Below, piece by piece: positions 16,589 to 34,043 of a stretch of 64,000 bases of DNA. Below the pieces are notes generated by a model, which saw only the letters and a program-made list of their open reading frames with translations, did no database searches and had not been told where the DNA came from. This DNA is from Verrucomicrobiota bacterium (GTDB lineage Bacteria; Verrucomicrobiota; Kiritimatiellia; JAAZAB01), in the NCBI GenBank assembly GCA_018898455.1, contig JAHIJO010000005.1, forward strand, positions 6,591 to 70,590. Reading direction: 5' to 3'. Every line of letters begins with the position of its first letter. Position 1 is the stretch's first letter. The position numbers and the translations under genes were made by a program.

Positions 16589-16626
16589 AACTTTGTGTTG
16601 CAAAGTTCTTTGCGGAGTGTTATTCT
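16589..16626 (+). promoter_or_regulatory. Promoter TTGCAA-17-TATTCT overlapped by a dyad-symmetric operator AACTTTG-N5-CAAAGTTCTTTGCG (site 1)
   Basis: -35 at 16598-16603, -10 at 16621-16626. Three CAAAG/CTTTG half-sites in alternating orientation (16591-95, 16601-05, 16609-13). The same 26-mer architecture recurs at 17679-17711. Confidence 0.45.
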
Positions 16627-16648
16627 TCGTTCAGAAACAAGGAGAACT

Positions 16649-17287
16649 ATGCTCGCACATCATGTCCATGATGCTTTAACCCAGGTCAAACGGCTCCAGG
16701 CCCTCATCCTTGAGAAGCGTTTATTCCGCGGTTACTCGGGGATTGCCCGCATGGCCGGCGGTCTCGTTGCGCTTGGCGGAATGTTCATCATGGCATCCCC
16801 GCTCTTCCCTTCCGTGCTCTCCGCGCATCTTCTGGGTTGGACGGCGGTGCTGATCATTGCCCTGGCCATTAATTATGGCACGCTGCTGTTCTGGTTTTCG
16901 ACCATGCCCGCCGCCCGCCGTTCGCTCCGTGAGCTGGTGCCCGCTTGCGATGCCGTTCCGGCCCTGGCGGTCGGCGCCGGACTCAGTCTGGCGCTGATAA
17001 TGCATGGCGAATACGATCTATTGTTTGGAACTTGGATGTGCCTGTATGGTTTGGTGCACATGCCTTACCGCAACAGCCTGCCCTTTGCCAACTACCTGGT
17101 CGGCATCTTTTATCTGGCGTGCGGCGCGATCATGCTGGTCTGGCCGGGAGTAGCGTTCACCAATCCGTACCCGATGGGCCTCGTTTTCGGCGCCGGCGAG
17201 CTGGGCGGAGGTTTTGTGTTGTGCCGGTTGAATCAAGAAACTGTTCTGGAACAGGAGGAAGAAACATCCCATGAAAACAACGACTGA
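16649..17287 (+). CDS. Integral membrane protein, hypothetical (5-6 TM)
   Basis: ATG 16649 with AAGGAG RBS. Several hydrophobic helices. The 3' end overlaps the start of the downstream ArsR-like gene, implying translational coupling. Confidence 0.6.
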   Translation: MLAHHVHDALTQVKRLQALILEKRLFRGYSGIARMAGGLVALGGMFIMASPLFPSVLSAHLLGWTAVLIIALAINYGTLLFWFSTMPAARRSLRELVPACDAVPALAVGAGLSLALIMHGEYDLLFGTWMCLYGLVHMPYRNSLPFANYLVGIFYLACGAIMLVWPGVAFTNPYPMGLVFGAGELGGGFVLCRLNQETVLEQEEETSHENND

Positions 17288-17648
17288 TAGTCCGTTCGAT
17301 GCGCTGGAGAAAATATTCCATGAACCTAACCGCCTGGCCATCATGTCCGCCTTATGCGCCGCGGATGGCGGAGTCCCCTTCACCGACCTGAAGACATCCT
17401 GTCGGCTGACCGACGGCAATCTGAGCCGCCATCTTAAAGTGCTTGAGGAAACTGGCGTGATCCGCGTGGAAAAGTCATTCGTCAAACTCCGTCCACGGAC
17501 GACAATCCACCTGACCAAAACCGGCTTCCAGCGGTTTAACGAATACCTGGCCGCGCTGACTGAAGTGTTGGAACAAGCCCGCCAGGCCACAGGCACCGAG
17601 CGAAGCAAATCGCGTCTGCCAGCTTTTGGGAAACTAGCGCCGGCGTAA
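17271..17648 (+). CDS. ArsR/SmtB-type winged-helix transcriptional regulator
   Basis: HEPNRLAIMSALCA....FTDLKTSCRLTDGNLSRHLKVLEETGVIRVEK matches the ArsR-family HTH pattern (xRLxIxxxL ... LSxHLKxLxxAGLV). Confidence 0.7.
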   Translation: MKTTTDSPFDALEKIFHEPNRLAIMSALCAADGGVPFTDLKTSCRLTDGNLSRHLKVLEETGVIRVEKSFVKLRPRTTIHLTKTGFQRFNEYLAALTEVLEQARQATGTERSKSRLPAFGKLAPA

Positions 17649-17678: not shown

Positions 17679-17711
17679 AACTTTGCCAAACAAAGTTCTT
17701 TGCGTTAGATT
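17679..17711 (+). promoter_or_regulatory. Promoter TTGCCA-17-TAGATT overlapped by the same operator AACTTTG-N5-CAAAGTTCTTTGCG (site 2); predicted leaderless start
   Basis: -35 at 17683-88, -10 at 17706-11. The predicted transcription start coincides with ATG 17719, which has no RBS. The operator copy is identical in spacing to site 1. Confidence 0.45.
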
Positions 17712-17718
17712 GAATCAC

Positions 17719-18921
17719 ATGAAAACAGTTCAAACCTTACAAGTGCTATCCGCAACACTCCTGGCGATCGGACTGGTGGTCACCCTACCCCTGCTTGGAA
17801 TCATGGCGACCGGCCTGCCGATCGGACACTATCTCGAATTTCCCCCTCACACCCATTACGTGGAACACGCCGGTTTTTCATGGTCCGTATTCGCCGGACT
17901 GGCCGCGTTTATTCTAATTGTCATCCTGCCTTTCATTATCCGGATCCTGTGCGCCAACCGGATGACGAAGACGAAAATGAAGCCGCTTATGGAGTCAACC
18001 GTCGCCCCGGCAGAGCCCCCTTTGCTGGGAAGCTACGGAGGGCCATGGTGGGGCGGATACAATTGCAATCAAAACGCCCGCCGTTTTCCAGTTTGGGGCT
18101 GGATTGGCATCGCCGGGGGAATCGGGGCCTGGATTCTCGCCTGGTCCCGTTTTGATTGGTTCGCACCCTGGCAGGCCTTCACGTTCAGTCCGTTGTGGTT
18201 CAGCTATATCGTCATCGTCAACGCCCTGACTCACCGGCGCACCGGCCAATGCATGCTGACCCAGAGACCCGTTTTCCTGCTGATGCTCTTTGTGTTCAGC
18301 GCCGCCTTCTGGTGGTTATTCGAATACCTGAACCGATTCGTCCAGAACTGGTACTACCTCGGGATCGGTTCCCTGACCCCCTTGGAATATTTTCTGTTTG
18401 CCACCCTCCCGTTTTCCACCGTGCTCCCGGCGGTAATGGGCACCTTCCAGCTCCTGGCCACCTACCCGCGACTTTCCAACGGACTGACCGGAATTTTTGT
18501 CATGCCCCACATCCAATCGCGCTTCGGTGCTCTCATTGTTCTTACATTGTCGGCGGGCGGATTGGCAGGTATTGGCTTGTGGCCGGACTACCTGTTTCCA
18601 TTACTCTGGCTGGCGCCGCTGGGAATACTGGCATCCCTCCAAACACTGACCGGACGGACGTCACTGTTTGCCGACCTGGTCCGCGGCGACTGGCGGCGGA
18701 TCGTCCTGCTGGCGCTGGCCGCGCTGATTTGCGGCTTCTTCTGGGAGATGTGGAATTTTTACAGCCTCGCCAAGTGGGTCTATGCCGTGCCATTCGTTGA
18801 CCGCTTCCACATTTTTGAAATGCCGGTACTCGGCTATGCCGGCTATCTACTCTTCGGCCTGGAATGCGCGCTGATTGCGGATTTACTGTGCGGTCGGCGA
18901 CAGATCGAGGAAAAACCTTGA
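17719..18921 (+). CDS. Large polytopic membrane protein, hypothetical (about 10 TM, Trp/aromatic-rich)
   Basis: First ATG at 17719; the 17683 start is TTG inside the operator. Highly hydrophobic. No family recognised. Stop overlaps the downstream start (TTGA). Confidence 0.6.
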   Translation: MKTVQTLQVLSATLLAIGLVVTLPLLGIMATGLPIGHYLEFPPHTHYVEHAGFSWSVFAGLAAFILIVILPFIIRILCANRMTKTKMKPLMESTVAPAEPPLLGSYGGPWWGGYNCNQNARRFPVWGWIGIAGGIGAWILAWSRFDWFAPWQAFTFSPLWFSYIVIVNALTHRRTGQCMLTQRPVFLLMLFVFSAAFWWLFEYLNRFVQNWYYLGIGSLTPLEYFLFATLPFSTVLPAVMGTFQLLATYPRLSNGLTGIFVMPHIQSRFGALIVLTLSAGGLAGIGLWPDYLFPLLWLAPLGILASLQTLTGRTSLFADLVRGDWRRIVLLALAALICGFFWEMWNFYSLAKWVYAVPFVDRFHIFEMPVLGYAGYLLFGLECALIADLLCGRRQIEEKP

Positions 18922-19481
18922 AAACATTTTACCACAGGTTACTGCAATTATGGCAGACAACACCGGAATGGAAACGTTCGGCGCTGGTCACGGCATTTCT
19001 TCTTCTGGCGTTGATACCGTGGACGGACTGCATGCCGGCGTTCTGGCGGACGGCATTCGTAATGCCGACCGCCTGGATCGCATCCTGGTTTATGTCGGCC
19101 AACTGTGTTCCCACACCACAAGGGTGCCTGCTTATCACGCCGATTGCGCCTGTTCATGTAACCCTCGCCTGCTGTGCGGCCAGATTTTTTGTCCTCCTGG
19201 CTTCCATGCTCGTCGGGCAGATTGTGGTTTCACGACGCCCTAAAATCCCCGGATTGGCGATTGCCTTGTTGATCGCCTACATGGTTGCGATTGCGGCCAA
19301 CTCGGCACGAGTTGTTTTCGCGTGGTTTGCCGGTCGGTGGGCCGAGCGCATCTTACCGTCCCATTTCGCCGCGGCAGTGCATATGGGCGCAGGCATAATG
19401 GTGTTTCTCGTGTTCCTGGTTGTACCGTGGGTCTTGTTCATGAACATAATTGATGACAAACGAAAGGAGAACTGGCGATGA
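18918..19481 (+). CDS. Minimal exosortase/archaeosortase-family protein candidate (~187 aa, 5-6 TM)
   Basis: TTG 18918 with GAGGAAAAAC RBS (alternative ATG 18864 overlaps the upstream gene). Motif LACCAAR (19164-19184) resembles the exosortase active-site EACSGLR (Cys...Arg). Later ANSARVV matches the conserved N-x-x-R motif. All sit in predicted TM context. Confidence 0.55.
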   Translation: MKTFYHRLLQLWQTTPEWKRSALVTAFLLLALIPWTDCMPAFWRTAFVMPTAWIASWFMSANCVPTPQGCLLITPIAPVHVTLACCAARFFVLLASMLVGQIVVSRRPKIPGLAIALLIAYMVAIAANSARVVFAWFAGRWAERILPSHFAAAVHMGAGIMVFLVFLVVPWVLFMNIIDDKRKENWR

Positions 19482-22411
19482 ACGCAACAGCAGATCGTTC
19501 ACAACTATTCGGTGACATATTGCGGAAACCAGCATTCATTCTGTGGACGATGATCCTGCCGCAGCTTCTTCTGCTGGCAATCAATATCAGCTCATGGAAC
19601 CTGGTTTCGGGCGAGATGTCCGCAATTCAGAAGGGTAATGCTTTCATGATTGGCGCTTTCGAAGTTGCCCTCCTGGGCGCTGGCGCCATTGCGTTTACTG
19701 GTTTGCAGATCCTGAAAAAAGGGGTGGGACGGATTCTTTCTGTGGGCATAATCCTTGCACATATCGGTTATCTCTGGACATTCACCTCTGCCATGCGTCA
19801 ACTGGTGCCCACCAGTGTTGCGGATTGGATTCTGCCGGGCGGTGAACTCCTTTATTATCAATATGCACTCATCATGCCGGCCCTGTTTTACGCAGGGTTC
19901 CGCCTGGTATCATTCGAGATACCGCTACGGCAAATCGCCGACTTTGGTGTCTCGCTGGGTGTGCTCCTCCTTCTGCCGATTGCCTGGTTTGTGGTCTTTT
20001 CACTTGCGCGCTTCTTGCCGTGGGGTTTCGAACCGCCAGTGATTATCGGGATTGTGTTCTTCGTGGCTTCGACAGTCATCGCCCTGCTGGCATTCCTGCG
20101 AGTGCTCCTGATTGTCTATGCCTGGGTGAACCGGGTAGTACACGGACGCCTTGTGCTCCTGGTGGTAACCGGCATTGCCGCGCCAATCGGCGGACTGTTG
20201 TTGAACATCGCGTATCCATTTCCTTATGATTTCCAGGACCCGTGGGTTTATATCCTGACAATACTTAACGGCCTGATCCTGTTGATTCCCACCCCGAAGA
20301 CCACGTCCCTGCGAGTAGGCATCTGGTACTTGCGCGCGCTGGTGTTTCCATTCTCGCTCTATTTCTTCGTGGTGTTCCTCCCGTTCCTGCCATTGTCACT
20401 CCTGGCCATGCTTGCCTGCGGCGCCGGTTGCCTGATCCTCGCCCCGACGCTCCTCTTCGTGATACACACGCGATGCTTACTAGATGAAGGCCGCGCCCTG
20501 ATCCCGCAGAAAGGCTGGACGGTTGTGTTGGCGTTGCTGGTCGCCGGCGTTTTGACCATTCCGGCCGGTTACACCGTCCGCGCACTCTATGACCGGCAGG
20601 CATTGATGTCGGCCGTGGATGCCGTGTACAGCCGCGATGCAGACGTCACCCGCGTCAGCTTCAATCCGCACTCCGCCTTGCGCGCCGTGGAACGTCTGCG
20701 TAACCAGAAGAACGGTATCCAGGTCCCGTTCATCTCGGACTACTACAATTGGCTGGTTTTCAATGGTTTGGTCCTGCCGGACTACAAGATGGATGCAATC
20801 GAACTGGTCCTCTCCGGAGCCAAACCTGCAAAACCCAAAATTAACAGTCATTTCAGCTTTGCCGAAATTTTTGCTACCCGAGGCAGGAGCCGTCCAGCAT
20901 GGCGCTCGACACCGGCGCCGCCACGGCGTGTTGAATTGACTACGGTGAATACAAACACTGAACGGGCCGGCGACGTGCTTAAGACCCGGGTCCAACTGCA
21001 AATGCGGAATGGAACCGACAATGCGGCCGAGTTCGTTACGGACATCACGGTGCCGCCCGGAGTTATGGTCACGGGCTATTGGTTGAACATGGAAACCAAC
21101 CGCGTGCCCGGCCGCATCTTCGAGAAAAAAACGGCGATGTGGGTCTATCACATGATCCGCGACACGACACGCCGGGATCCCGGTTTGCTGGTGTATCAGG
21201 ACGAACACCGTCTCAAGCTTAGCGTGTTTCCATTCCGGCAAAACGAGGAACGGATCACCGAAATCGAGTTCACATTCCCTGCAATCATGGATCCGGAGAT
21301 CGTGATCGGGACCCGGCCATTGCGCCTGAACAGCGATGCCCAACTGCGCGCCGAACCGATCCGATTCAAGCATGCCGGCAGTGACGCCCTGGCCGTTCCG
21401 CGCGCGGTGTTGAATACATTTCCCACGGTTCGCCGAAAACCCTACTTGCATTTCATCCTGGACTGTTCGGCAACCGCCGAAAAAGAAGCGCACCAGTTTG
21501 CCGAACGCATCCGGCGTGAAGCGGCCCGTTTCCCGGAAGCCGGTGGCTGTCTTATCTCCGCGGCTAACTATGAAGTTACCGACCTGACCGATCAGTTTAT
21601 CCCCTTGGCCGATGCGGCGGAACTCGTGACCGCATCGCGTGGAAAGATGCTCCCGTTCCGGGGCGCACTTTGTCCGGAATATGCGATCAAACGCGGACTG
21701 CCGGATTTCAGATTCGGATTGGCATTCGACAAAAGCGGCGAATTAATGGTCCCAATCTTTGTTGTGATCAAGGCCGACGCCACCACGCCGGTGATGCCGA
21801 CCGACCTTGCCGTTTTTGCCGATGCGGTTCCGGATGTGCCGGCATGGTACATCACGCGCTTGGACGGCCGCCTCGACGCCTGCGCATTTGATGGCAGAAC
21901 AAACACCATTGTCGAGCGACCGTCACTGCCTGAACCGGCAGTTGTGTTTCGGCACGGCGACGCCATCGTGACACATTGCGCCAAGACGGACGCGATTATT
22001 TCGTTCCGTCCAACTGCCGCGCCGATAATGTATTTCGATCCTGCTACTCGCCAGTTCATTGAGATCACGAATATTATCAAGTCGGCACACGACAGCGGAT
22101 ATGGCGCGGCCATATCACTCTGGTTGGACTGGCGCGATACGGTCATTCGGCCATCAACCCTAAATGCACGGCTTCCGGCAATTGTCAAGGCCAGCCGGGA
22201 GTCGAATGTCATCGTACCGTTGACTTCCTACATCGTGGTCGAGAATTCGGCGCAGTGGAAAATGCTTGTGATCAAGGAAAAACAGTCGTTGGCGGCGGAC
22301 CATGCGCTCGCGTTCGACGAATTCAAGGAGTCGCCGGAGCCCGCGTCGTGGCTCTTGCTGCCAATCGCCTGCGCCTTGCTGTGGTGGCGAAGGACAAGAC
22401 AATACGGATAA
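19478..22411 (+). CDS. 977-aa protein: N-terminal ~460-aa multipass membrane domain, large soluble middle region (VIT-like?), C-terminal PEP-CTERM-type sorting signal
   Basis: ATG overlaps the upstream stop (ATGA), AAAGGAGAA RBS. At least 10 hydrophobic helices in the first 460 aa. C-terminus ..SPEPASWLLLPIACALLWWRRTRQYG (22331-22408) is PEP motif, then TM helix, then Arg cluster. This is the PEP-CTERM signature recognised by exosortases. Confidence 0.7.
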   Translation: MNATADRSQLFGDILRKPAFILWTMILPQLLLLAINISSWNLVSGEMSAIQKGNAFMIGAFEVALLGAGAIAFTGLQILKKGVGRILSVGIILAHIGYLWTFTSAMRQLVPTSVADWILPGGELLYYQYALIMPALFYAGFRLVSFEIPLRQIADFGVSLGVLLLLPIAWFVVFSLARFLPWGFEPPVIIGIVFFVASTVIALLAFLRVLLIVYAWVNRVVHGRLVLLVVTGIAAPIGGLLLNIAYPFPYDFQDPWVYILTILNGLILLIPTPKTTSLRVGIWYLRALVFPFSLYFFVVFLPFLPLSLLAMLACGAGCLILAPTLLFVIHTRCLLDEGRALIPQKGWTVVLALLVAGVLTIPAGYTVRALYDRQALMSAVDAVYSRDADVTRVSFNPHSALRAVERLRNQKNGIQVPFISDYYNWLVFNGLVLPDYKMDAIELVLSGAKPAKPKINSHFSFAEIFATRGRSRPAWRSTPAPPRRVELTTVNTNTERAGDVLKTRVQLQMRNGTDNAAEFVTDITVPPGVMVTGYWLNMETNRVPGRIFEKKTAMWVYHMIRDTTRRDPGLLVYQDEHRLKLSVFPFRQNEERITEIEFTFPAIMDPEIVIGTRPLRLNSDAQLRAEPIRFKHAGSDALAVPRAVLNTFPTVRRKPYLHFILDCSATAEKEAHQFAERIRREAARFPEAGGCLISAANYEVTDLTDQFIPLADAAELVTASRGKMLPFRGALCPEYAIKRGLPDFRFGLAFDKSGELMVPIFVVIKADATTPVMPTDLAVFADAVPDVPAWYITRLDGRLDACAFDGRTNTIVERPSLPEPAVVFRHGDAIVTHCAKTDAIISFRPTAAPIMYFDPATRQFIEITNIIKSAHDSGYGAAISLWLDWRDTVIRPSTLNARLPAIVKASRESNVIVPLTSYIVVENSAQWKMLVIKEKQSLAADHALAFDEFKESPEPASWLLLPIACALLWWRRTRQYG

Positions 22412-22523
22412 TGGAGGTATTAAATTACTTCATCCAAACTGAAAATTAATATTCAACTAACTCTTGGGTCGAATTGTCCATTTCATGCAGCTGAACCAAG
22501 ACAAAATTAAGACAAGGGAAACT

Positions 22524-23315
22524 ATGCCAACTGAAACACTATTTAAGAACTGCATTGAAAAAGCAACACTCGGCGCCATTCTGATATTAATCCTGTTGTG
22601 TTGTTCGGCTTGTGAAAGGCTTTTCGATGCCTTTAATAGTCCGGCAGAACAGGCTTACTTGATGGGATTACGCGCCCAGAAAGGTGAAGCCAGGGACACT
22701 GACCCCCTGGAATGTTTCAATCGAGCAATTAGCTTGGATCCGCATCGATCCCGATATTACAGCGCACGTGCCGAATTGTATTTTTGGAAAAGGCAATTTG
22801 CAGAAGCGCTCCGGGATCTGAATGAAGCTGTCTCGCTCTCGCCTAATTGGTACTATCTTTATTTCGAGCGCGGCAACTGTAAATGTCAATTGAATGACTT
22901 CATATCAGCACTGGCAGATTTTGATACAGCGATCAAGGCACAGCCTGATAACGCTCAGTACTACAGTGGCGTCGCTCTGGCAAATCTTGGAATGAATAGT
23001 CCCGATAAAGCGCTGGAGGCAATCGAAAAAACAATAGCTTTAGACCCTATGTGCCTGCGCTGGCACTTCTATAGAGGTGTCATTTTAAGCCGCATGGGTA
23101 GACACAAAGACGCAGTATCGGAATTCGCTAAAACGGAAGCCTTCACGATTATGCTGAAAGACAACAAGCAAAAGCAGGTTTTTTTCGACGGAGAAATTGA
23201 ATATACCAAGGCGCGCGCTCTGTCACCGCAACAACTGCTGAGTACCTGGCCTTATGCTCCTTCCGAAGAGCGCGCTGAGCAGTACTTTCTCAAGCGAGGC
23301 TCAAACGAGGAATAA
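22524..23315 (+). CDS. Tetratricopeptide-repeat protein, probable lipoprotein
   Basis: ATG 22524 with AAGGGAA RBS. N-terminal hydrophobic segment ending ..LLCCSAC. At least 4 TPR-like units (A..LDP...Y..RA.....A..D..A). Confidence 0.7.
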   Translation: MPTETLFKNCIEKATLGAILILILLCCSACERLFDAFNSPAEQAYLMGLRAQKGEARDTDPLECFNRAISLDPHRSRYYSARAELYFWKRQFAEALRDLNEAVSLSPNWYYLYFERGNCKCQLNDFISALADFDTAIKAQPDNAQYYSGVALANLGMNSPDKALEAIEKTIALDPMCLRWHFYRGVILSRMGRHKDAVSEFAKTEAFTIMLKDNKQKQVFFDGEIEYTKARALSPQQLLSTWPYAPSEERAEQYFLKRGSNEE

Positions 23316-23449: not shown

Positions 23450-25060
23450 ATGAATGCACCATCACATCATCCGTATTCACGGGCGGGAATCTGTGTTTGG
23501 ATCAATGGGCTGATCGTTCTATTCCTCGCCGTCTATTTCCTGATCCTGCCGGGGTTCATTTTGGTACACGACCTGATGGACCCCAACCTCCGCCAGCCGG
23601 GTGGTATCCCCCGGATGGCCTGGCGGGTGCATGCCAGCTTGACCCCGCACTACGAACACTGGGCGCGGGCCCGCGTCGCCTCCGGCAGAGCCGGACATCT
23701 CCAGCTAAATGACGTGCCCAGCACGGAATGGCCGATGTTCGGATCGGTTTTCTATCTTGCCGCCACAGAAAATCTTCAACGCGCGTGGGACAAAGGTGAG
23801 CATGGTTCCCGTATTGCTCCGAAAGTGTATGCCCGGGCCGCAATTGAAGCGGCGGCGGAACTCATCCTGGACCCCATCCACCACACGTGGGTTCGCACGC
23901 ATTGGGGACCGAACTACCTGCACCATGAAAATGTGTTCTTCCGGGCCATGATTATCCAAGGCCTCACCTGCCGCCAAAACCTGATCGGTGACGGCAAATA
24001 CCTGGACATCCTACGCGACCAGGTGGAAACACTTGCGGACGATCTCGACCGTTCGCCATACGGACTGCTCCACGATTATCCCGGAGAATGCTACCCAGTC
24101 GATGTATTGGCGGCGATCACCATGATTCGCCGGGCGGATCCTGTGCTGGGCACGGATCATTCGGCATTTGCCGGCCGGGCCAGGCGCGGATTCCAGGGAG
24201 CACGGCTTGATGCGCGCGGATTGCCACCCTACGTGGCCGAGCCTACTACCGGCGGACATGACGGTATCTCACGGGGTATCGGCAATTCATACATTTGTAT
24301 CTACGCCCCGGAACTTTATCCGGATTTGGCCCGAGTCTGGTATGACGCTTATCAACGCTACTTCTGGCAGGAGCGAATAGGCGCGGCCGGGTTTCGCGAA
24401 TATCCCAACGATCTTCCCGGCTACGAATTATTTTTCGATGTGGATTCCGGCCCTGTCATTTTCGGATTCAGCCCGGCGGGGAACGCTTATGGCTTGGCGG
24501 CGGCGCGGGTCAACGGCCGTTTCGATCAGGCGTGGCCGCTGGCCTCACAGGTACTGGCGGCTTGCTGGCATCTGCCCAACGGCAGTCTGCTGGGACCGCG
24601 GATGTTGTCCAATGCCGCGCACGCCCCCTACCTGGGTGAAGCCAATATGCTTTTCCTGCTGACACAGAACCCGATCCCAGCCCAACCGATCCGCCTTGGC
24701 GGGCACATGCCGCCGCTGGTGTATGTTGGATTCATGTTTTATTTCGGATTGGGGACACTAGTGATTGGCTTGACAACCCGTAAACTTTTCGCCTGGAAAA
24801 ACACAGGTGAAATCGTTCACGTGCCTTTTGCTCGGATTCAACTCAGTCTATGGCTGCTCTTAATGCTTGCCGGGATCATCCTGATGATATGCATCAGCCC
24901 CGGCATCGGCATGTTACCCATTATTACCGCCCAGCTTCTGCCGCGCTTCGGTAAGGTCAAAAGGAATAGCTCACGAAATGGTCGGATGGCTTCCGTTGTA
25001 GCGGCCGTTCGACAGAACGGCAATCCACGGTTCTTCCCGCTAGGAGCGGGACAAACTTAA
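23450..25060 (+). CDS. Hypothetical membrane protein (N-terminal TM, large extracytoplasmic domain, C-terminal TM bundle)
   Basis: Single long ORF with hydrophobic segments at both ends. No family recognised. Confidence 0.55.
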   Translation: MNAPSHHPYSRAGICVWINGLIVLFLAVYFLILPGFILVHDLMDPNLRQPGGIPRMAWRVHASLTPHYEHWARARVASGRAGHLQLNDVPSTEWPMFGSVFYLAATENLQRAWDKGEHGSRIAPKVYARAAIEAAAELILDPIHHTWVRTHWGPNYLHHENVFFRAMIIQGLTCRQNLIGDGKYLDILRDQVETLADDLDRSPYGLLHDYPGECYPVDVLAAITMIRRADPVLGTDHSAFAGRARRGFQGARLDARGLPPYVAEPTTGGHDGISRGIGNSYICIYAPELYPDLARVWYDAYQRYFWQERIGAAGFREYPNDLPGYELFFDVDSGPVIFGFSPAGNAYGLAAARVNGRFDQAWPLASQVLAACWHLPNGSLLGPRMLSNAAHAPYLGEANMLFLLTQNPIPAQPIRLGGHMPPLVYVGFMFYFGLGTLVIGLTTRKLFAWKNTGEIVHVPFARIQLSLWLLLMLAGIILMICISPGIGMLPIITAQLLPRFGKVKRNSSRNGRMASVVAAVRQNGNPRFFPLGAGQT

Positions 25061-25680: not shown

Positions 25681-26646
25681 ATGAAGGCATTGATCACCGG
25701 TATTACCGGACAGGACGGGTCTTATCTGGCGGATTTTCTACTGAGTCGCGGCTACCAGGTCTTCGGCATGGTGCGCCGCTCCAGCACGGAAACCTTCGAG
25801 CGCATCGCACATATCAAGGACCGGCTCAACCTGAAACAGGCCGACCTGCTGGACCAGCTCTCGCTTATTGAGTTGATGGAGGAAGTTCAGCCGGATGAAA
25901 TCTACAACCTGGCGGCCATGTCGTTTGTGCCGACCTCCTGGACCCAGCCGATGCTGACGGGGGAATTTACAGCCATCGGCGTCACCCGCATGCTGGAAGC
26001 CATGCGCCATGTCTGTCCGCAAGCCAAATTTTACCAGGCCTCCAGCAGTGAAATGTTCGGCCAAGTCCGCGAAGTGCCCCAGACCGAACTCACGCCGTTT
26101 CACCCGCGAAGCCCCTATGGCGCCGCCAAGGCTTACGGCCATTACATTACCGTCAACTACCGGGAAAGCTACAACCTGTTCGCATGCTCCGGCATTCTCT
26201 TCAACCATGAAAGCCCGCGGCGCGGCAAGGAATTCGTCACCCGTAAAATCAGCAACGGTGTCGCCCGGATCAAGCGGGGACTTGACCATGAACTCCGCAT
26301 GGGCAATCTTGACGCGAAACGGGATTGGGGATTCGCCGGCGATTATGTCAAGGCCATGTGGATGATGCTTCAGCAGGATCATCCGGATGATTATCTCATC
26401 GCCACCGGCCAAGCTCATTCAGTCCGCGATTTTCTTGAACAGGCATTTTCCCATGTGGGACTGGACTGGAAACAGTATGTCGTCCAGGACCCCCAGTTCA
26501 TTCGGCCGGCGGAAGTCGATCAATTGATGGGGAACAGTTCCAAAGCCCGGCGGGTGCTGGGCTGGACACCGGAAGTTGACTTCCACGGACTGGTCACTAT
26601 GATGGTGGATTCAGATCTGGCCAAACTTCAAACTGTTAAGCCCTGA
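25681..26646 (+). CDS. gmd: GDP-mannose 4,6-dehydratase
   Basis: [29 protein letters not shown].. and the downstream catalytic motifs are near-textbook Gmd. Confidence 0.9.
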
Positions 26647-26648
26647 TC

Positions 26649-27590
26649 ATGCGCGTGCTTGTCACAGGAGCCAGTGGGTTTGTCGGTAAACACCTGATTC
26701 GCGAATTACTCCGGCACGATCACGAACCGCTGGCGTTCGACCTCGTCCCGGCCCGGTCCCTGCCCGTATCCGTTCCCGGTTTTACGGGGGATATTCTGAA
26801 CGCGGAACTCCTGCTGCGGCTGGTGGCCCGTATCCGGCCTGACGCCTGCGTGCATCTGGGCGGCATTTCATTCGTCCCCGAGGGTTGGCATAATCCGGAA
26901 CGCATGTTATCCGTCAATGTGCTGGGCGCCATTCACCTGCTGGAAGCGTTCCGGAAATCCTCGGCCGGCGCGCATATCCTGGTCATCAGTTCCGCCGAGG
27001 TGTATGGATGCCGGCCCCGCTCCCACCCGATTACCGAACAGGAACTGCTGGATCCCGATAATCCTTACGCCGTTTCCAAGGCGGCGGCCGACCAAATGTC
27101 CTTGTTGTATGCATCCTATCACGGCATGCATATCATGACAGCGCGCCCCTGCAACCATATCGGGCCGGGCCAGTCCCCGCAATTCGTGGTGCCCTCCTTC
27201 GCCGAACAACTCCTGGCAATCGCCCGGAAGAAGACGGCGCCTGTTTTAAAAGCCGGCAACCTGGAAAACCTGCGCGATTTCACGGACGTCCGCGATATCG
27301 TCCGGGCCTACCGCCTGCTCATCGAAAGCGGCAAAGCCGGACAGGCCTATAATATTGCGTCCGGACGCGCTGTGCCCATTCAAACCATTCTGGACCAGTT
27401 GGGCGGAATTATTGGCGTGACGCCATCAGTTGAAAGGGATCCCAACCGGTATCGCCCCCTGGAACACCGGCCGCAAATCGCCATCGGCAAAATTGCGGCG
27501 GATATTAATTGGAAACCCGATATCCCGCTGGAAGTCACCTTGCGGGATGTGGTTGCCGAACTCAACCGATCTCCCACCCCTCCGACATGA
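26649..27590 (+). CDS. NAD-dependent epimerase/dehydratase, GDP-4-keto-6-deoxy-D-mannose reductase (Rmd)-like
   Basis: MRVLVTGASGFVGKHL.. SDR Rossmann motif and YxxxK (YAVSKAAAD). Immediately follows gmd with a 2-nt gap. The Rmd versus GDP-fucose synthase assignment is inference from context and N-terminus. Confidence 0.65.
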   Translation: MRVLVTGASGFVGKHLIRELLRHDHEPLAFDLVPARSLPVSVPGFTGDILNAELLLRLVARIRPDACVHLGGISFVPEGWHNPERMLSVNVLGAIHLLEAFRKSSAGAHILVISSAEVYGCRPRSHPITEQELLDPDNPYAVSKAAADQMSLLYASYHGMHIMTARPCNHIGPGQSPQFVVPSFAEQLLAIARKKTAPVLKAGNLENLRDFTDVRDIVRAYRLLIESGKAGQAYNIASGRAVPIQTILDQLGGIIGVTPSVERDPNRYRPLEHRPQIAIGKIAADINWKPDIPLEVTLRDVVAELNRSPTPPT

Positions 27591-28687
27591 GATCCATTTC
27601 ATCGCTGAAAAAAACGCTTTCCATCGCGCTGCGACTGGCGCTGGCCTTCGGAATCATCTTTTACCTCCTGCATAAAATCGACATGCAGGCTCTGACGCTG
27701 ATCCTGCGGGAAAGTCTGAGCCAATGGGAATGGCTCATTGCCGGCATCGTGCTCAGCTATCTAGCCCTGCACGCCGGCATGATCCGGTGGAGCATCATTC
27801 TCGACGCCCAGGGACTGGAAATGTCAGCAAAGCGCTGTTTCAGCGTGTATTTCATCGGGCAATTTTTCAACTCGTTCATGTTCGGTTCCACCGGGGGCGA
27901 CCTGATCCGCGCCTTTTACGCGGCGAAGGAAACCCATCACAAGAAGACTGAAGCCGTGGCTACGGTGTTCATTGACCGGATGATCGGGCTCATCGCCCTC
28001 TATCTGATTGCCGCGATCATGCTGACGGTTCGAGTAAAGTTTTTCCTGAGCCAGTGGGAAACCCATCTGCCGGCGCTGATCATGATCGGCATGATCCTGG
28101 CCACCATGGTCGCCCTGATCGTGGTCTTCAATATCAATCGTTTTGCCAACTGGCCGCTGGTGGACAGAATCAAGCGGCACCCGACGCTCGGACGAACAAT
28201 CAAGCGCGTGTTGATTTCCATCTATCTGTACCGGCGCCGGACAGGCGTCCTGATACGGACCTCGCTTCTGTCGCTTTTAATCCAGGCGCTCACCGTTACG
28301 CAATGCTACTGCATCGGCCGGTGTTTCCAGATCAATATTGGCGTCGTGGATTACCTGACGGTCATTCCCATTATCATATCAATCGCGGCCATCCCGATCA
28401 CTCCCGGCGGACTGGGCATCCGCGAGGGACTCGCCGTCACCCTGCTCGGCGCGATGGGCGTCAACAGCGCTCAGTCTCTGCCGCTGTCCCTGATGATTTT
28501 CTTTATCTCCGTGGCCTGGAGCCTGGTAGGCGGCGTGATCTTCATGGGGTATTCAGCGAGCTCCGGACACACGGTCCACGAGGAAATGGTCGAGCTCGAA
28601 CACGAGACGGAGAGCGAAGACGGGGAGGAAGGGATCCCGAGCGCCCATGAACAAGACAACGTCATCCGAACGTGCCAGGGCCAATAA
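27587..28687 (+). CDS. Lysylphosphatidylglycerol-synthase-TM-like / flippase-like membrane protein (UPF0104 family)
   Basis: ATG overlaps the upstream stop (ATGA). 8 or so TM helices and the PGGLGIREG motif diagnostic of the LPG_synthase_TM family. Acidic C-terminal tail. The 3' end overlaps convergent murC by ~135 nt. Confidence 0.7.
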   Translation: MRSISSLKKTLSIALRLALAFGIIFYLLHKIDMQALTLILRESLSQWEWLIAGIVLSYLALHAGMIRWSIILDAQGLEMSAKRCFSVYFIGQFFNSFMFGSTGGDLIRAFYAAKETHHKKTEAVATVFIDRMIGLIALYLIAAIMLTVRVKFFLSQWETHLPALIMIGMILATMVALIVVFNINRFANWPLVDRIKRHPTLGRTIKRVLISIYLYRRRTGVLIRTSLLSLLIQALTVTQCYCIGRCFQINIGVVDYLTVIPIIISIAAIPITPGGLGIREGLAVTLLGAMGVNSAQSLPLSLMIFFISVAWSLVGGVIFMGYSASSGHTVHEEMVELEHETESEDGEEGIPSAHEQDNVIRTCQGQ

Positions 28688-30037: not shown

Positions 30038-31285
30038 TCAGTCTTGACTCAGCAGGTCAATCAAGTTCTCAAAACGTCGCGCGATATACGAGTACTCGCA
30101 CTTGCCTTTCACATCCCGATCGTCACGAAGTGTGCGAAGGGCATCCGCAATCAGTTTGCGATCCGTTGTGATGATGTCTTCAATGAGCGGGGCCGCAGAG
30201 TTCGAGTAGAAGACCTCGCGGACGTTGCCATAGGTTGTTCGTCCACCCCGCGAGCCAAGATAGGTCAAGACTAGGTACTTCAGAATCTTCTCCTTCGGGT
30301 CGTCAGGGCAGAAAATGAAGCCACTGACCTCTGTGAATGATCGAATCACGTCCCCGTGTTTCTCGTATGCGCCCCAGCTTGTTCCTATAGCGTGCATGGC
30401 ATTGTAGATGGAATCAAAAAAGTCAATCACCTGAGAACGCTTGAGATAGGAGAGTAGGCCCATTGCAGAGGCTACGCATGCCTGCCGACGATCAAGCGTC
30501 GTTCGTCCAATCTTCTCCTGAAGGTGCTTGGCCAGACTGAGGCGAACGGCATTCTGCGTCAATGAGGACAATCTCGTCAGAAAAGTGAAGGCGTTCTGCT
30601 GAACAATCTCCGACTGCCCTTTGTTCAGCGAAACACTCATCAGAAACTTCAGGATCTCTTCCTGCCGAGGGGCAGGAGCAGACCGGAATTCCTCAAGAAG
30701 TGTCTCTGTCGGAACAGCCGGAGTTGCTCCTTCGACAATATCCTTAACGTCCGTAACTCTGAGCAACTGCACGGGGTCTCGCGACAGCACAACGTCTATG
30801 CATGTTCTGAATACATAGACGCAGTCTTCGATTCCTGCCTCGTACTCATCATCCTCATGCTCTAGGTCGCGTCTAATTTCATAGCAGCGCGACAGTCGCC
30901 TCCATTCCGGACGTGAAAGGAATCCTATTTTGTAGGCAAGGTCAACCAGTTTTGCCGTGGGATAATGTTCCAGATCCTCTGCCGTTGCCACAGGAGGGAG
31001 CTTCGCCTGAATTGCTGCCTCTTTGGCGATGTCCAGACCAGCAACAATGATTTTCTCACGCAGATCATGGATGGCCGCATTGAGGATGCGTTGACAGGCG
31101 CTACTTGGATCGACTTCAAGGAGACGTTGAACCCTTGTGATCAGATTCTTGGTTTTCCACGACGGCCTAATCTGGTCCATCAAGGAAGGCACCTCCGACC
31201 TGCGGATGATCTCAACATGTTCGGCTGGTACGATTTCGTTTGTCATATTTTTTCTATCCAACGTCCTGCACACTCCCACCCTCAA
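30038..31285 (-). CDS. Hypothetical protein, fourth gene of the restriction-modification operon (no recognisable domain)
   Basis: Start (TTG 31285, or ATG 31246 MTNEIV..) overlaps the vsr stop (TTGA). 400-415 aa, no Walker or nuclease motifs detected. Codon/GC usage similar to the RM genes. Confidence 0.55.
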   Translation of the reverse strand: MRVGVCRTLDRKNMTNEIVPAEHVEIIRRSEVPSLMDQIRPSWKTKNLITRVQRLLEVDPSSACQRILNAAIHDLREKIIVAGLDIAKEAAIQAKLPPVATAEDLEHYPTAKLVDLAYKIGFLSRPEWRRLSRCYEIRRDLEHEDDEYEAGIEDCVYVFRTCIDVVLSRDPVQLLRVTDVKDIVEGATPAVPTETLLEEFRSAPAPRQEEILKFLMSVSLNKGQSEIVQQNAFTFLTRLSSLTQNAVRLSLAKHLQEKIGRTTLDRRQACVASAMGLLSYLKRSQVIDFFDSIYNAMHAIGTSWGAYEKHGDVIRSFTEVSGFIFCPDDPKEKILKYLVLTYLGSRGGRTTYGNVREVFYSNSAAPLIEDIITTDRKLIADALRTLRDDRDVKGKCEYSYIARRFENLIDLLSQD

Positions 31286-31737
31286 CTTACCCGTCTGCGG
31301 GCAAGTTGTAGTGGTGGAGTGCGTTGCTGGACAATTGCTTTCAATTTCTGGACCTTCCGCGATTTCTTGCCAACCGTCAAATCATGTTCCCACAATCTGA
31401 TGACAAACCATCCTGTTAGTCGCAGAAAGAGATTTGTTTTTTTGTCCCGCGCCTTGTTGTGTTCGATCTTCGCCCGCCAGTAGGCGCGTTTGCTGTGCGG
31501 CATTCGGCAGTGCCGGGGGCAACCATGCCAGAAGCAACCGTCAACAAAGACGGCTACGCGCTCACGCGGGAAAACGAAGTCGGGCTTCCCATGAACGGGG
31601 AGTCTGCGCCGCCAGCCGGTGATGCCGGTTTCCCTGAAAAGCTGGATCATGCGCAACTCCGTCGAGCGATTCCCTTCGGACTTCACTTGCGACATGATGC
31701 GGGATCTGGTTTTTGGCGTCACGTTGTCCATAAGCAA
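31282..31737 (-). CDS. vsr: Very short patch repair endonuclease
   Basis: ..TELRMIQLFRETGITGWRRRLPVHGKPDFVFPRERVAVFVDGCFWHGC.. is the canonical Vsr signature (FVDG.FWHG). Confidence 0.9.
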   Translation of the reverse strand: MLMDNVTPKTRSRIMSQVKSEGNRSTELRMIQLFRETGITGWRRRLPVHGKPDFVFPRERVAVFVDGCFWHGCPRHCRMPHSKRAYWRAKIEHNKARDKKTNLFLRLTGWFVIRLWEHDLTVGKKSRKVQKLKAIVQQRTPPLQLARRRVS

Positions 31738-32841
31738 TCATAGGGAAATAATCGTCCGGGGCCTCTTGTTCAGGAGTTTGGCTTCCAATAGGGATTTCGG
31801 GGGTATGCTGGCGGCTTGCAGCAGTTTATTGAAGTCGGTGTCTCCCTGAATCGGGGGTATCTGCCCGGCATAGAGGTTGTCCACCTCCAACGGGCGGATG
31901 CCAGTGCGGGAACGTGCCGCATAGCGTAGGCTGAGAATGTTCACTTCCTTCAACACTTCCGAAATCAGTTTCCGCATATTCAAGTCGGTGGTGTTGGAGA
32001 TATAGGCGGCGAGCGCATCTTGAAGAATCCAGATGGTTTGGCCGCCCCATGCTTTCCCGATCTGCGACTTGACGATCAACTGACTAACCATTCGCGCCCA
32101 GACCTGCCTGTAGTTGATACCTGGCGCTGCGTGCGGTTGGCCCAGGATGGCCTTACGGAAGGCATTCTGAATCGTCGTTCCCTTGGTCTTGTTCCCACCC
32201 GACGTGCTTGAAGTCATAACCTCGATCACTAAGGGCTGGCCTGCCGGGTATTCTTCGATGTACTTCCGACCGCCACGACTTGCGAGTGTGTAACCGTTCT
32301 TGGTCAAGGCAGATTCAAGTTTGCGCTCGATAATTCCGAGTGTGTTTGCCGTTTCGGAAAGCAGTTTCGGGCGGATTGGACAAATGATGTAGTCGAAGGT
32401 GTAATCAAAGATCTTATCGGCGTCGGCCTCATCTTCGGCCTCCTCCGAGTGCTTGATCTTCACTTCAGACCAGACGCCGGCCTTGCAGGGCAAGGCGTTG
32501 GGTGCGAATCGCCGCAACAGACCTTCGCAGAAGCCCTCGTGTGATGTGTGACCTCCGCCCTTATCCAAGACAAAGAGACGGCGGGGGCAAACGATCCACG
32601 TTTCATCGGACGTGGAAAGCGAACACACGCCAGCCGGAATGTCCGCTGTCTTGCCGTCAAAGAACGTGACCAGTTCGCGGTCGCGGGTCGCGTCAAGGTG
32701 TAAGAACGATTGATAGCGATTGCCGCCGCCGTCACACATCTGTCCCATGAATGGGCAAAGACACTGTTTTCGGTGTCGTTTGGCTTCTGCTGTGTGGTCT
32801 TCTGTAAGGAATCCAAATAATTCATATATCTTGGAACTCAT
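31738..32841 (-). CDS. Type II restriction endonuclease, NotI-family-like
   Basis: N-terminal Cys cluster (..CLCPF..C....GVC......WIVCPRRLF) parallels the NotI Fe-Cys4 motif (..CPF..C..GVC...WLVCPNRAL). Central ..VIEVMTSS.. resembles the NotI catalytic region. Confidence 0.65.
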   Translation of the reverse strand: MSSKIYELFGFLTEDHTAEAKRHRKQCLCPFMGQMCDGGGNRYQSFLHLDATRDRELVTFFDGKTADIPAGVCSLSTSDETWIVCPRRLFVLDKGGGHTSHEGFCEGLLRRFAPNALPCKAGVWSEVKIKHSEEAEDEADADKIFDYTFDYIICPIRPKLLSETANTLGIIERKLESALTKNGYTLASRGGRKYIEEYPAGQPLVIEVMTSSTSGGNKTKGTTIQNAFRKAILGQPHAAPGINYRQVWARMVSQLIVKSQIGKAWGGQTIWILQDALAAYISNTTDLNMRKLISEVLKEVNILSLRYAARSRTGIRPLEVDNLYAGQIPPIQGDTDFNKLLQAASIPPKSLLEAKLLNKRPRTIISL

Positions 32842-34043
32842 GCTAACACCTTCGCGATCTGCGCCGCAACCACTTGCGCGAGTGGCGGGGGTACGGAGTT
32901 GGCGACAAGTCGGTGCTGATCAAGGTTTTTGACTGTCCCCGATCTGCTACGGATGGGCCCGCAGAGAATGTACTCGTCCGGATATCTGTGAAGGCGCAGA
33001 TACTCGCGGGGGGTCAAGTATCTATCCTCGACGGGATGGAAGAATATCTCGCCGCAACGAAGGGTTAAGGATGGTTCGAGCCGATGCAATCTGCGGTACT
33101 TCGTCGTGTCCTTTTTCGTAAGGTTGCATTTCAAATCTGGTGGAGCATTCAGGGTTCCGGCCAAGAAACCGCCTTCGGCTACGGGGTGAATACGTTCACG
33201 ATCACGGTCGGGGGTCACGTCAACATGGTTCGGGAAAGCGGGTTGAGTTCCTTTTGCTGCTGGTGGCGGCAGGCCGCCTAGGACCGTCCCCGATCCGACA
33301 TATGGTTTGAGCGTGAAGAGGGGCGTTTCTTCGGGGTCTTCGGCATGAGTGGGCGGCGGGAAAGAGAAGCCATTTTCGCCCTTTCGCGCCACGATGAAGA
33401 CGCGTTCGCGCAGTTGCGGGACGCCATAGTCGGCGGCGCAAAGCACAGCCCACTTGACGCAGTAACCGAGTTGTTCGAGTTCGCGGATGAACCGTTTGAA
33501 GACGCCGCCTGCCTCGCCCTTTTCGTCGGGGGCGCTCAACAGTCCTTTTACTTGTTCAAGCAAGATAGCGCGAGGTTTCAAGGCCGCAGCAAAGCGGATC
33601 ATCTCAAATAGGAGGAGGCCGCGTGAGTCGCCGAGGGAACCGCGTTTGCCGATGAGAGAGAAGGCTTGGCACGGTGGCCCACCGTGAAGGAGATCAATTC
33701 CAGGCTCCGCCACTGCAAGAGGGTCAACCATGCGGATGTCCGCTTCGACGATCTTTGTCTCGGCATTTTTTCGTTTGGCGTTGAACCGCAGGGTCTCGGC
33801 GGCATTCGGATCGAACTCCACACAAGCGAGATTCCTGAACCCGGCGGTTTCGACGCCGATGTCCATCCCGCCTCCGCCGCTGAACAGGGAAACCGAAGTC
33901 AGTTTGCGGCCATAACCGGCGGCGGACTCCTTCACCATGCGGGGCTTCTTGGCGCGTTTTTTCACGCTTTTGCTCATGGGGCTACTGTACACCATTCGCC
34001 TGTCTCTTGGTAGTGTCATTTTTCTGTCTTGTCCAACATCCAT
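32838..34043 (-). CDS. DNA (cytosine-5)-methyltransferase
   Basis: Motif I SLFSGGGGMDIG, motif IV GGPPCQAFS, motif VI ENVKGL-like (LLEQVKGLLS). Overlaps the endonuclease gene start by 4 nt. Confidence 0.9.
   Translation of the reverse strand: MDVGQDRKMTLPRDRRMVYSSPMSKSVKKRAKKPRMVKESAAGYGRKLTSVSLFSGGGGMDIGVETAGFRNLACVEFDPNAAETLRFNAKRKNAETKIVEADIRMVDPLAVAEPGIDLLHGGPPCQAFSLIGKRGSLGDSRGLLLFEMIRFAAALKPRAILLEQVKGLLSAPDEKGEAGGVFKRFIRELEQLGYCVKWAVLCAADYGVPQLRERVFIVARKGENGFSFPPPTHAEDPEETPLFTLKPYVGSGTVLGGLPPPAAKGTQPAFPNHVDVTPDRDRERIHPVAEGGFLAGTLNAPPDLKCNLTKKDTTKYRRLHRLEPSLTLRCGEIFFHPVEDRYLTPREYLRLHRYPDEYILCGPIRSRSGTVKNLDQHRLVANSVPPPLAQVVAAQIAKVLA

Follow-up and report, generated by a model that had tools for sequence, protein, structure and literature searches.

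The stretch of DNA analyzed here, 64,000 nucleotides from a Verrucomicrobiota bacterium of the Kiritimatiellia (contig JAHIJO010000005.1, positions 6,591 to 70,590 of the forward strand) and referred to below as the window, contains at 18918–19481 a gene for a 187-aa membrane protein. An earlier note, made from the sequence without database searches, had described this protein as exosortase-like. The gene is followed by, and overlaps, a gene for a 977-aa MSEP-CTERM sorting-domain protein, the predicted substrate of the 187-aa protein. The features of the pair are as follows:

18907–18911, + strand: GAGGA ribosome-binding site, read from the sequence, 6 nt ahead of the exosortase TTG
18918–19481, + strand: XrtK-like mini-exosortase gene, 187 aa, TTG start, assigned from TIGR04178 and XrtK matches, an identical NCBI protein and an AlphaFold model
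19170–19172, + strand: codon of Cys85, predicted nucleophile
19299–19310, + strand: codons of N128-S-A-R131 (A-N-x-x-R motif)
19380–19382, + strand: codon of His155, predicted third member of a Cys/Arg/His set
19478–22411, + strand: MSEP-CTERM sorting-domain protein, predicted substrate, 977 aa, with an N-terminal polytopic domain, VIT and vWA-like domains and a C-terminal signal
22331–22408, + strand: tripartite sorting signal of the 977-aa protein

Counted from the first in-frame ATG, the exosortase open reading frame (ORF) spans 18864–19481, whereas a start at TTG 18918 gives a protein of 187 aa. The earlier note had proposed the TTG, preceded by a strong ribosome-binding site and overlapping the upstream stop codon, and we arrive at the same start: the GAGGA lies 6 nt ahead, the TTG (18918–18920) overlaps the TGA (18919–18921) of an upstream gene for a 412-aa membrane protein, and we place the start at 18918 because the NCBI protein and the homologues start there. 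The identical protein in NCBI is 187 aa long and is named archaeosortase/exosortase family protein, and the six close homologues whose N-terminus is intact share one starting column in the alignment, with MK in five and MR in one. A protein 71% identical to the exosortase is encoded in a Kiritimatiellae metagenome-assembled genome (MAG). The in-frame ATG at 18864, which would give a protein of 205 aa, was rejected because the homologues and the NCBI protein begin at the TTG position. At the other end of the gene the stop codon TGA (19479–19481) overlaps the ATG (19478–19480) of the downstream 977-aa gene, a gene overlap of 4 nt, and AAGGAG precedes the downstream start. The exosortase gene is therefore translationally coupled on both sides, by a TTGA overlap upstream and an ATGA overlap downstream. 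Promoter and terminator scans found nothing decisive inside the gene string.

Family assignment and predicted active site

The earlier note had suggested that its reading be checked by a hidden Markov model (HMM) search and by alignment of the motif positions with known family members, and would have given it up if there were no HMM support and the motifs did not align. Both analyses were carried out; HMM support exists and the motifs align with the conserved residues of the family, and the exosortase-like assignment accordingly holds. The 187-aa protein matched TIGR04178, the exosortase/archaeosortase signature, over model positions 1–95 of 97 with 28.7 bits (cut-off 23, E = 1.2e-6), and the best specific NCBIfam model was exosortase K (XrtK, TIGR04287), with 30.1 bits (E = 3e-7). 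The curated XrtK cut-off of 55 bits was not reached, and the protein is therefore filed as XrtK-like, not XrtK. Within an alignment of 98 family representatives, 97 matched TIGR04178 and 91 matched XrtK. A search of PDB sequences with the 187-aa protein gave only chance matches (E > 0.3). For comparison with canonical exosortases, a profile-profile alignment against three exosortases of 283–327 aa was made with hhalign, and this gave a probability of 97.4% (E = 1.2e-11). The window exosortase aligned only to columns 131–265 of the 286-column canonical profile (~135 columns), and it therefore corresponds to the C-terminal catalytic core, the N-terminal ~130 residues being absent. The 187-aa protein is a genuine, ordinary member of the exosortase/archaeosortase family.

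The suggestion that the protein is near the minimal size for the family needs qualification: it is small, but it sets no new size limit and is not the smallest member, because the XrtK model is only 163 positions long and relatives of 140–180 aa are common. A profile of close homologues was searched against 1.84 billion cluster representatives, of which 262 were found at E ≤ 1e-3; nearly all are 140–230 aa long, and many are shorter than the window exosortase. The small size is not new, and the short class is already curated. What the window provides is a new member, scoring below the XrtK threshold, of a known system, and both its exosortase gene and its MSEP-CTERM gene are already so named in public annotation.

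Conservation was counted in two sets, the 98-representative family alignment and 71 exosortase ORFs linked to MSEP-CTERM genes. Mean column identity in the 98-sequence alignment is 26%, and the only invariant columns are C85, N128, and R131 (98/98 each), while H155, G159, P50, F90, and F163 are conserved in at least 90%. Among the 71 MSEP-linked ORFs, N128 and R131 are present in all, H155 in 70, and C85 in 70, with one gap. The hhalign alignment pairs VTLAC85CAARFF with VAEACSGIRSL, AAN128SAR131 with AANAVR, and AVH155MGAG with FFHEFSG, so that C85 stands opposite the canonical ACSG cysteine, N128 and R131 opposite the corresponding residues of ANAVR, and H155 opposite the canonical histidine.

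These alignments bear on the two motifs singled out in the earlier note. LACCAAR (L83–R89, encoded at 19164–19184) had been likened to the exosortase catalytic motif, a parallel that is sound for the cysteine and fails for the arginine: the R89 position is Arg in only 4 of the 71 linked homologues, and R89 was rejected as a catalytic residue on that ground. The likening of ANSARVV (A127–V133) to the N-x-x-R motif was correct, and it is this motif that holds the conserved arginine. The cysteine had been numbered C87, a slip, the two cysteines being C85 and C86 when counted from the TTG start; the C86 position is Ser in 48 of the 71 linked homologues. From the sequence comparisons, we predict that the catalytic cysteine is C85, the first of the CC pair; the conserved arginine is R131. 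The suspected triad of exosortases and archaeosortases consists of Cys, Arg, and His (Haft, bioRxiv 10.1101/2023.06.07.544157), and archaeosortase A (ArtA) requires Cys173, Arg214, and Arg253 for activity (PMC9263693).

The AlphaFold model of the exosortase is compact, with a predicted local distance difference test score (pLDDT) of 95.9. Hydropathy and the model place helices at 17–38, 40–59, 88–104, 110–145, and 148–186, with a short beta region at 62–82. The exosortase is a polytopic membrane protein with about 4–5 membrane helices, close to the 5–6 previously proposed. The positive-inside rule predicts a cytoplasmic location for both termini, which are basic, and for the 105-SRRPK-109 loop, and this topology would place C85, R131, and H155 near the periplasmic leaflet.

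The MSEP-CTERM partner and conservation of the pair

The 977-aa protein encoded downstream, named MSEP-CTERM sorting domain-containing protein at NCBI, matched TIGR04286 (MSEP-CTERM) over model positions 3–915 of 920 with 434 bits (cut-off 150), and it carries a Pfam VIT domain. Its C-terminal end is ...FDEFKESPEPASWLLLPIACALLWWRRTRQYG, which includes the tripartite signal: S952-P-E-P955, a hydrophobic helix at ~957–970, and the basic cluster R971-R-T-R974, followed by QYG. P953 and P955 are invariant in 25 homologues, and across loci the motif is [ST/A]-P-[EA]-P. No other ORF in the window has a P-x-P motif followed by a transmembrane segment and a basic tail. The AlphaFold model (pLDDT 81) consists of ~11 N-terminal helices (13–384), a beta-sandwich and an alpha/beta region from 485 to about 860, and a terminal helix (957–976), with SPEP lying within a low-confidence linker (950–960). 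The ectodomain (residues about 485–860) matches the VIT and vWA domains of inter-alpha-inhibitor (ITI) heavy chain 1 (Foldseek, E = 8.7e-12). In ITI heavy chains, cleavage close to the C-terminus is accompanied by covalent transfer to a glycan, and this processing may be a functional analogy for the MSEP-CTERM protein.

A genome scan with an MSEP-CTERM alignment identified 378 relatives, from which 79 loci were retained. Most of these loci come from Kiritimatiellae, Victivallales, Verrucomicrobiota, Omnitrophota, and Planctomycetota, and some from Spirochaetota and proteobacterial MAGs. A mini-exosortase gene is found directly upstream of the MSEP gene on the same strand, usually overlapping it, in 65 of the 79 loci, and within 3.3 kb upstream in five others; one locus has no upstream flank. 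The pair also occurs in cultured organisms, among them Opitutaceae bacterium EW11 (L068) and Verrucomicrobia bacterium IMCC26134 (L079). The MSEP loci without a detectable exosortase are L017, L022, L023, L037, L055, L064, L067, and L073. Locus L055 contains a classical PEP-CTERM tail (IPEP, helix, and KRTRRQR) on an opposite-strand ORF of 608 aa.

Ten partner exosortases of other lineages (Verrucomicrobiota, Omnitrophota, Planctomycetota, Leptospirales, and proteobacterial MAGs) were tested against the curated models. For all ten, XrtK was among the two best models, with 27–50 bits, below the cut-off of 55:

L005, L013, L027, L041, L043, L058, L065, L068, L074, L079: tested sub-cut-off partner exosortases, upstream of MSEP genes

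The curated XrtK model appears too narrow for non-canonical lineages. Partner exosortases that score under its cut-off therefore receive only the generic family name, and MSEP-CTERM partner exosortases outside the founding lineage are missed (11 of 11 tested, 27–50 bits versus 55). On its own, the finding in the window is of little weight; it bears out an existing automatic annotation and refines it from "exosortase family protein" to an XrtK-like partner of the adjacent MSEP-CTERM protein.

The family profile of the window exosortase retrieved the bona fide XrtK protein P0124 (125 bits) with E = 1.5e-9, and the two proteins are 26% identical (E = 1e-11); their Cys, N-x-x-R, and His motifs align. 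In the canonical locus, L082, the XrtK gene overlaps the start of the gene for a 929-aa MSEP-CTERM protein (761 bits), and the window MSEP-CTERM protein aligns collinearly with the canonical one over 904 aa (E = 8e-53), ESPEP standing opposite QMDEP. The window system has in common with the XrtK/MSEP-CTERM system (TIGR04287/TIGR04286) the small size of the enzyme, the gene order, the overlap with an MSEP-CTERM gene of ~950 aa, the motifs, and a collinear partner. It differs in scoring below 55 bits, in the signal, which is M-[SD]-E-P in the canonical system versus S-P-E-P or [ST]-P-[EA]-P here, and in the accessory genes that the subclade adds.

More distant systems share fewer features. The exosortase A/EpsH and PEP-CTERM system (TIGR03109, TIGR02602, PF09721) has the homologous core with the ACSG cysteine, ANxxR, and H...G, and a PEP-like signature ahead of a membrane helix and an Arg cluster. 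However, exosortase A/EpsH enzymes are about 280–520 aa long with ~8 helices and many substrates, whereas the window enzyme is without the N-terminal ~130 residues and apparently has one adjacent substrate. The XrtN system with its VIT-domain target (TIGR04476, TIGR04477) is also a one-to-one system with a VIT domain in the target, but the window proteins score 13.4 and 39 bits against cut-offs of 200 and 250, and the XrtN model has 406 positions. The ArtA/PGF-CTERM system of Haloferax volcanii shares the TIGR04178 superfamily signature; ArtA, however, is archaeal and longer, recognizes a PGF motif, and has many substrates, including the S-layer glycoprotein. The ArtA branch alone has experimental proof of C-terminal cleavage and of the lipid attachment coupled to it, with essential Cys and Arg residues (PMC9263693; bioRxiv 10.1101/2023.06.07.544157). 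A literature search on XrtK, MSEP-CTERM, and exosortase K found no relevant paper.

Proposed function and alternative explanations

The 187-aa protein is very probably a short XrtK-type intramembrane cysteine protease/transpeptidase of the exosortase family that is dedicated to the adjacent 977-aa MSEP-CTERM protein. By extension from ArtA and the exosortase family, the C-terminal helix of the substrate would lie in the inner membrane, with RRTR on the cytoplasmic side and SPEP on the periplasmic one. With help from Arg131 and His155, Cys85 would attack the chain at or near SPEP and remove the C-terminal helix, and the new C-terminus of the substrate would be passed to water or to an acceptor, e.g., a polymer or the head group of a lipid. 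Such a cut would leave the C-terminal end of the VIT-vWA ectodomain free or anchored anew. It would not release the substrate from the membrane, because the N-terminal domain of ~11 helices stays there. A pair of one enzyme and one substrate, with an enzyme core of 187 residues, would be a compact system for studying exosortase cleavage and attachment.

Several points weigh against this assignment. The XrtK score falls short of the curated cut-off, and the Pfam model Exosortase_EpsH (PF09721) gave no match to the window protein, nor did any other Pfam model at E ≤ 0.1; some relatives carry a precomputed PF09721 match. Eight of the 78 loci that have an upstream flank contain an MSEP gene and no detectable exosortase in the available flanks, and in one close homologue (P0007) His155 is replaced by Lys. 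There is no solved structure of the exosortase fold against which the active-site geometry could be checked. For the small class as a whole we infer cleavage, the cleavage site, and the acceptor by analogy.

An alternative is a general exosortase whose substrates, PEP-CTERM-type proteins, are encoded at other places in the genome and whose gene lies beside the MSEP-CTERM gene by coincidence. S-P-E-P does resemble the PEP-CTERM motif, the examined part of the genome is 64 kb, one related locus (L055) has a classical PEP-CTERM tail, and eight loci have an MSEP gene and no exosortase nearby. Against this, 65 of 79 loci from several phyla keep the two genes side by side, usually with an overlap, as does the canonical XrtK locus, and the window has no second tail of this kind, which makes a general exosortase unlikely. 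A non-catalytic membrane partner of the MSEP-CTERM protein, i.e., a chaperone or scaffold that retains the exosortase fold, is considerably less probable than that. In its favor, the window protein lacks the N-terminal half of canonical exosortases, and one close homologue has Lys at the His155 position, but the Cys, Asn/Arg, and His residues are invariant or nearly so in 98 divergent representatives with a mean column identity of 26%, and this pattern fits an active site, not a scaffold.

There is next to no chance that the gene is a truncated remnant or a mis-called fragment of a longer exosortase gene, although canonical exosortases have 280–520 aa and only their C-terminal ~135 columns align with it. 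The lengths found across the family suffice to refute that explanation, nearly all 262 cluster representatives being 140–230 aa long. In addition, homologues share the start position, translational coupling links the gene to both of its neighbors, the structural model is compact with its pLDDT of 95.9, and the curated XrtK model itself is 163 positions long.

Accessory genes and neighborhood of the pair

In a subclade of the Planctomycetota-Verrucomicrobiota-Chlamydiota (PVC) group (Kiritimatiellae, Victivallales, and relatives), the XrtK-like/MSEP-CTERM pair sits within a larger conserved module with four accessory genes. In the window these are:

16595–17287, + strand: polytopic membrane protein, 230 aa, recognized by hydropathy and kept with the regulator in 13 ORFs
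17271–17648, + strand: winged-helix regulator (HTH_34/ArsR-like), PF13601 at 75 bits, in the same position in 13 ORFs
17683–18921, + strand: upstream polytopic membrane protein, 412 aa by ORF, PVC-subclade accessory gene coupled to the exosortase gene
23450–25060, + strand: membrane-anchored linalool-dehydratase/isomerase (Ldi)-like protein, 536 aa, adjoining the exosortase/MSEP genes in about 17–21 ORFs

The window and about 13–17 related loci carry all four accessory genes together with the exosortase/MSEP pair. The usual order is the 230-aa gene, the regulator, the 412-aa gene, the 536-aa gene, the exosortase gene, and the MSEP gene; in the window and in its closest relative (L003) the 536-aa gene comes after the MSEP gene. 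The loci with the accessory set are:

L003, L008, L012, L015, L018, L019, L025, L029, L031, L033, L040, L051, L061

Homologues of the 412-aa protein, for which no Pfam, NCBIfam, or PDB match was found, co-occur in 16 ORFs across the loci. An internal duplication in the 412-aa protein was considered and rejected, the hhalign comparison of its halves giving a probability of 2%. The family profile of the 536-aa protein (alignment A5) matches PDB chains of linalool dehydratase/isomerase (E = 6.6e-18). The Pfam Ldi domain is found in 5 of 11 members of this family, and the window copy alone gave no match; hydropathy shows one hydrophobic segment in the N-terminal part of the 536-aa protein and about three in its C-terminal part. 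In four loci, single ORFs of 691–882 aa unite homologues of the 412-aa protein and of the Ldi-like protein, which suggests that the two proteins act jointly:

L004, 127–2775: fused 412/Ldi-like ORF
L015, 2307–4952: fused 412/Ldi-like ORF
L025, 4726–7068: fused 412/Ldi-like ORF
L051, 1–2076: fused 412/Ldi-like ORF

A speculative role for the extra genes, which we regard as slightly less probable even than the general exosortase considered above, is that they make or remodel an isoprenoid-type acceptor, to which the exosortase would transfer the C-terminus of the VIT-vWA protein with its resemblance to ITI heavy chains. If true, bacteria would have an equivalent of archaeosortase-dependent lipid anchoring in which the pathway to the acceptor is defined.

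Between the MSEP and Ldi-like genes, at 22464–23315, the window encodes a TPR-repeat protein with an N-terminal hydrophobic segment, which is absent from the closest relative, L003. On the same strand after the module (25681–28687) are genes for a GDP-mannose 4,6-dehydratase (435 bits), an NAD-dependent sugar epimerase/dehydratase, and a flippase-like membrane protein. Farther downstream on the − strand (30038–34043), a C-5 cytosine DNA methylase (188 bits) is encoded beside two ORFs (367 and 415 aa) without a Pfam match, and these three genes may form a restriction-modification unit.

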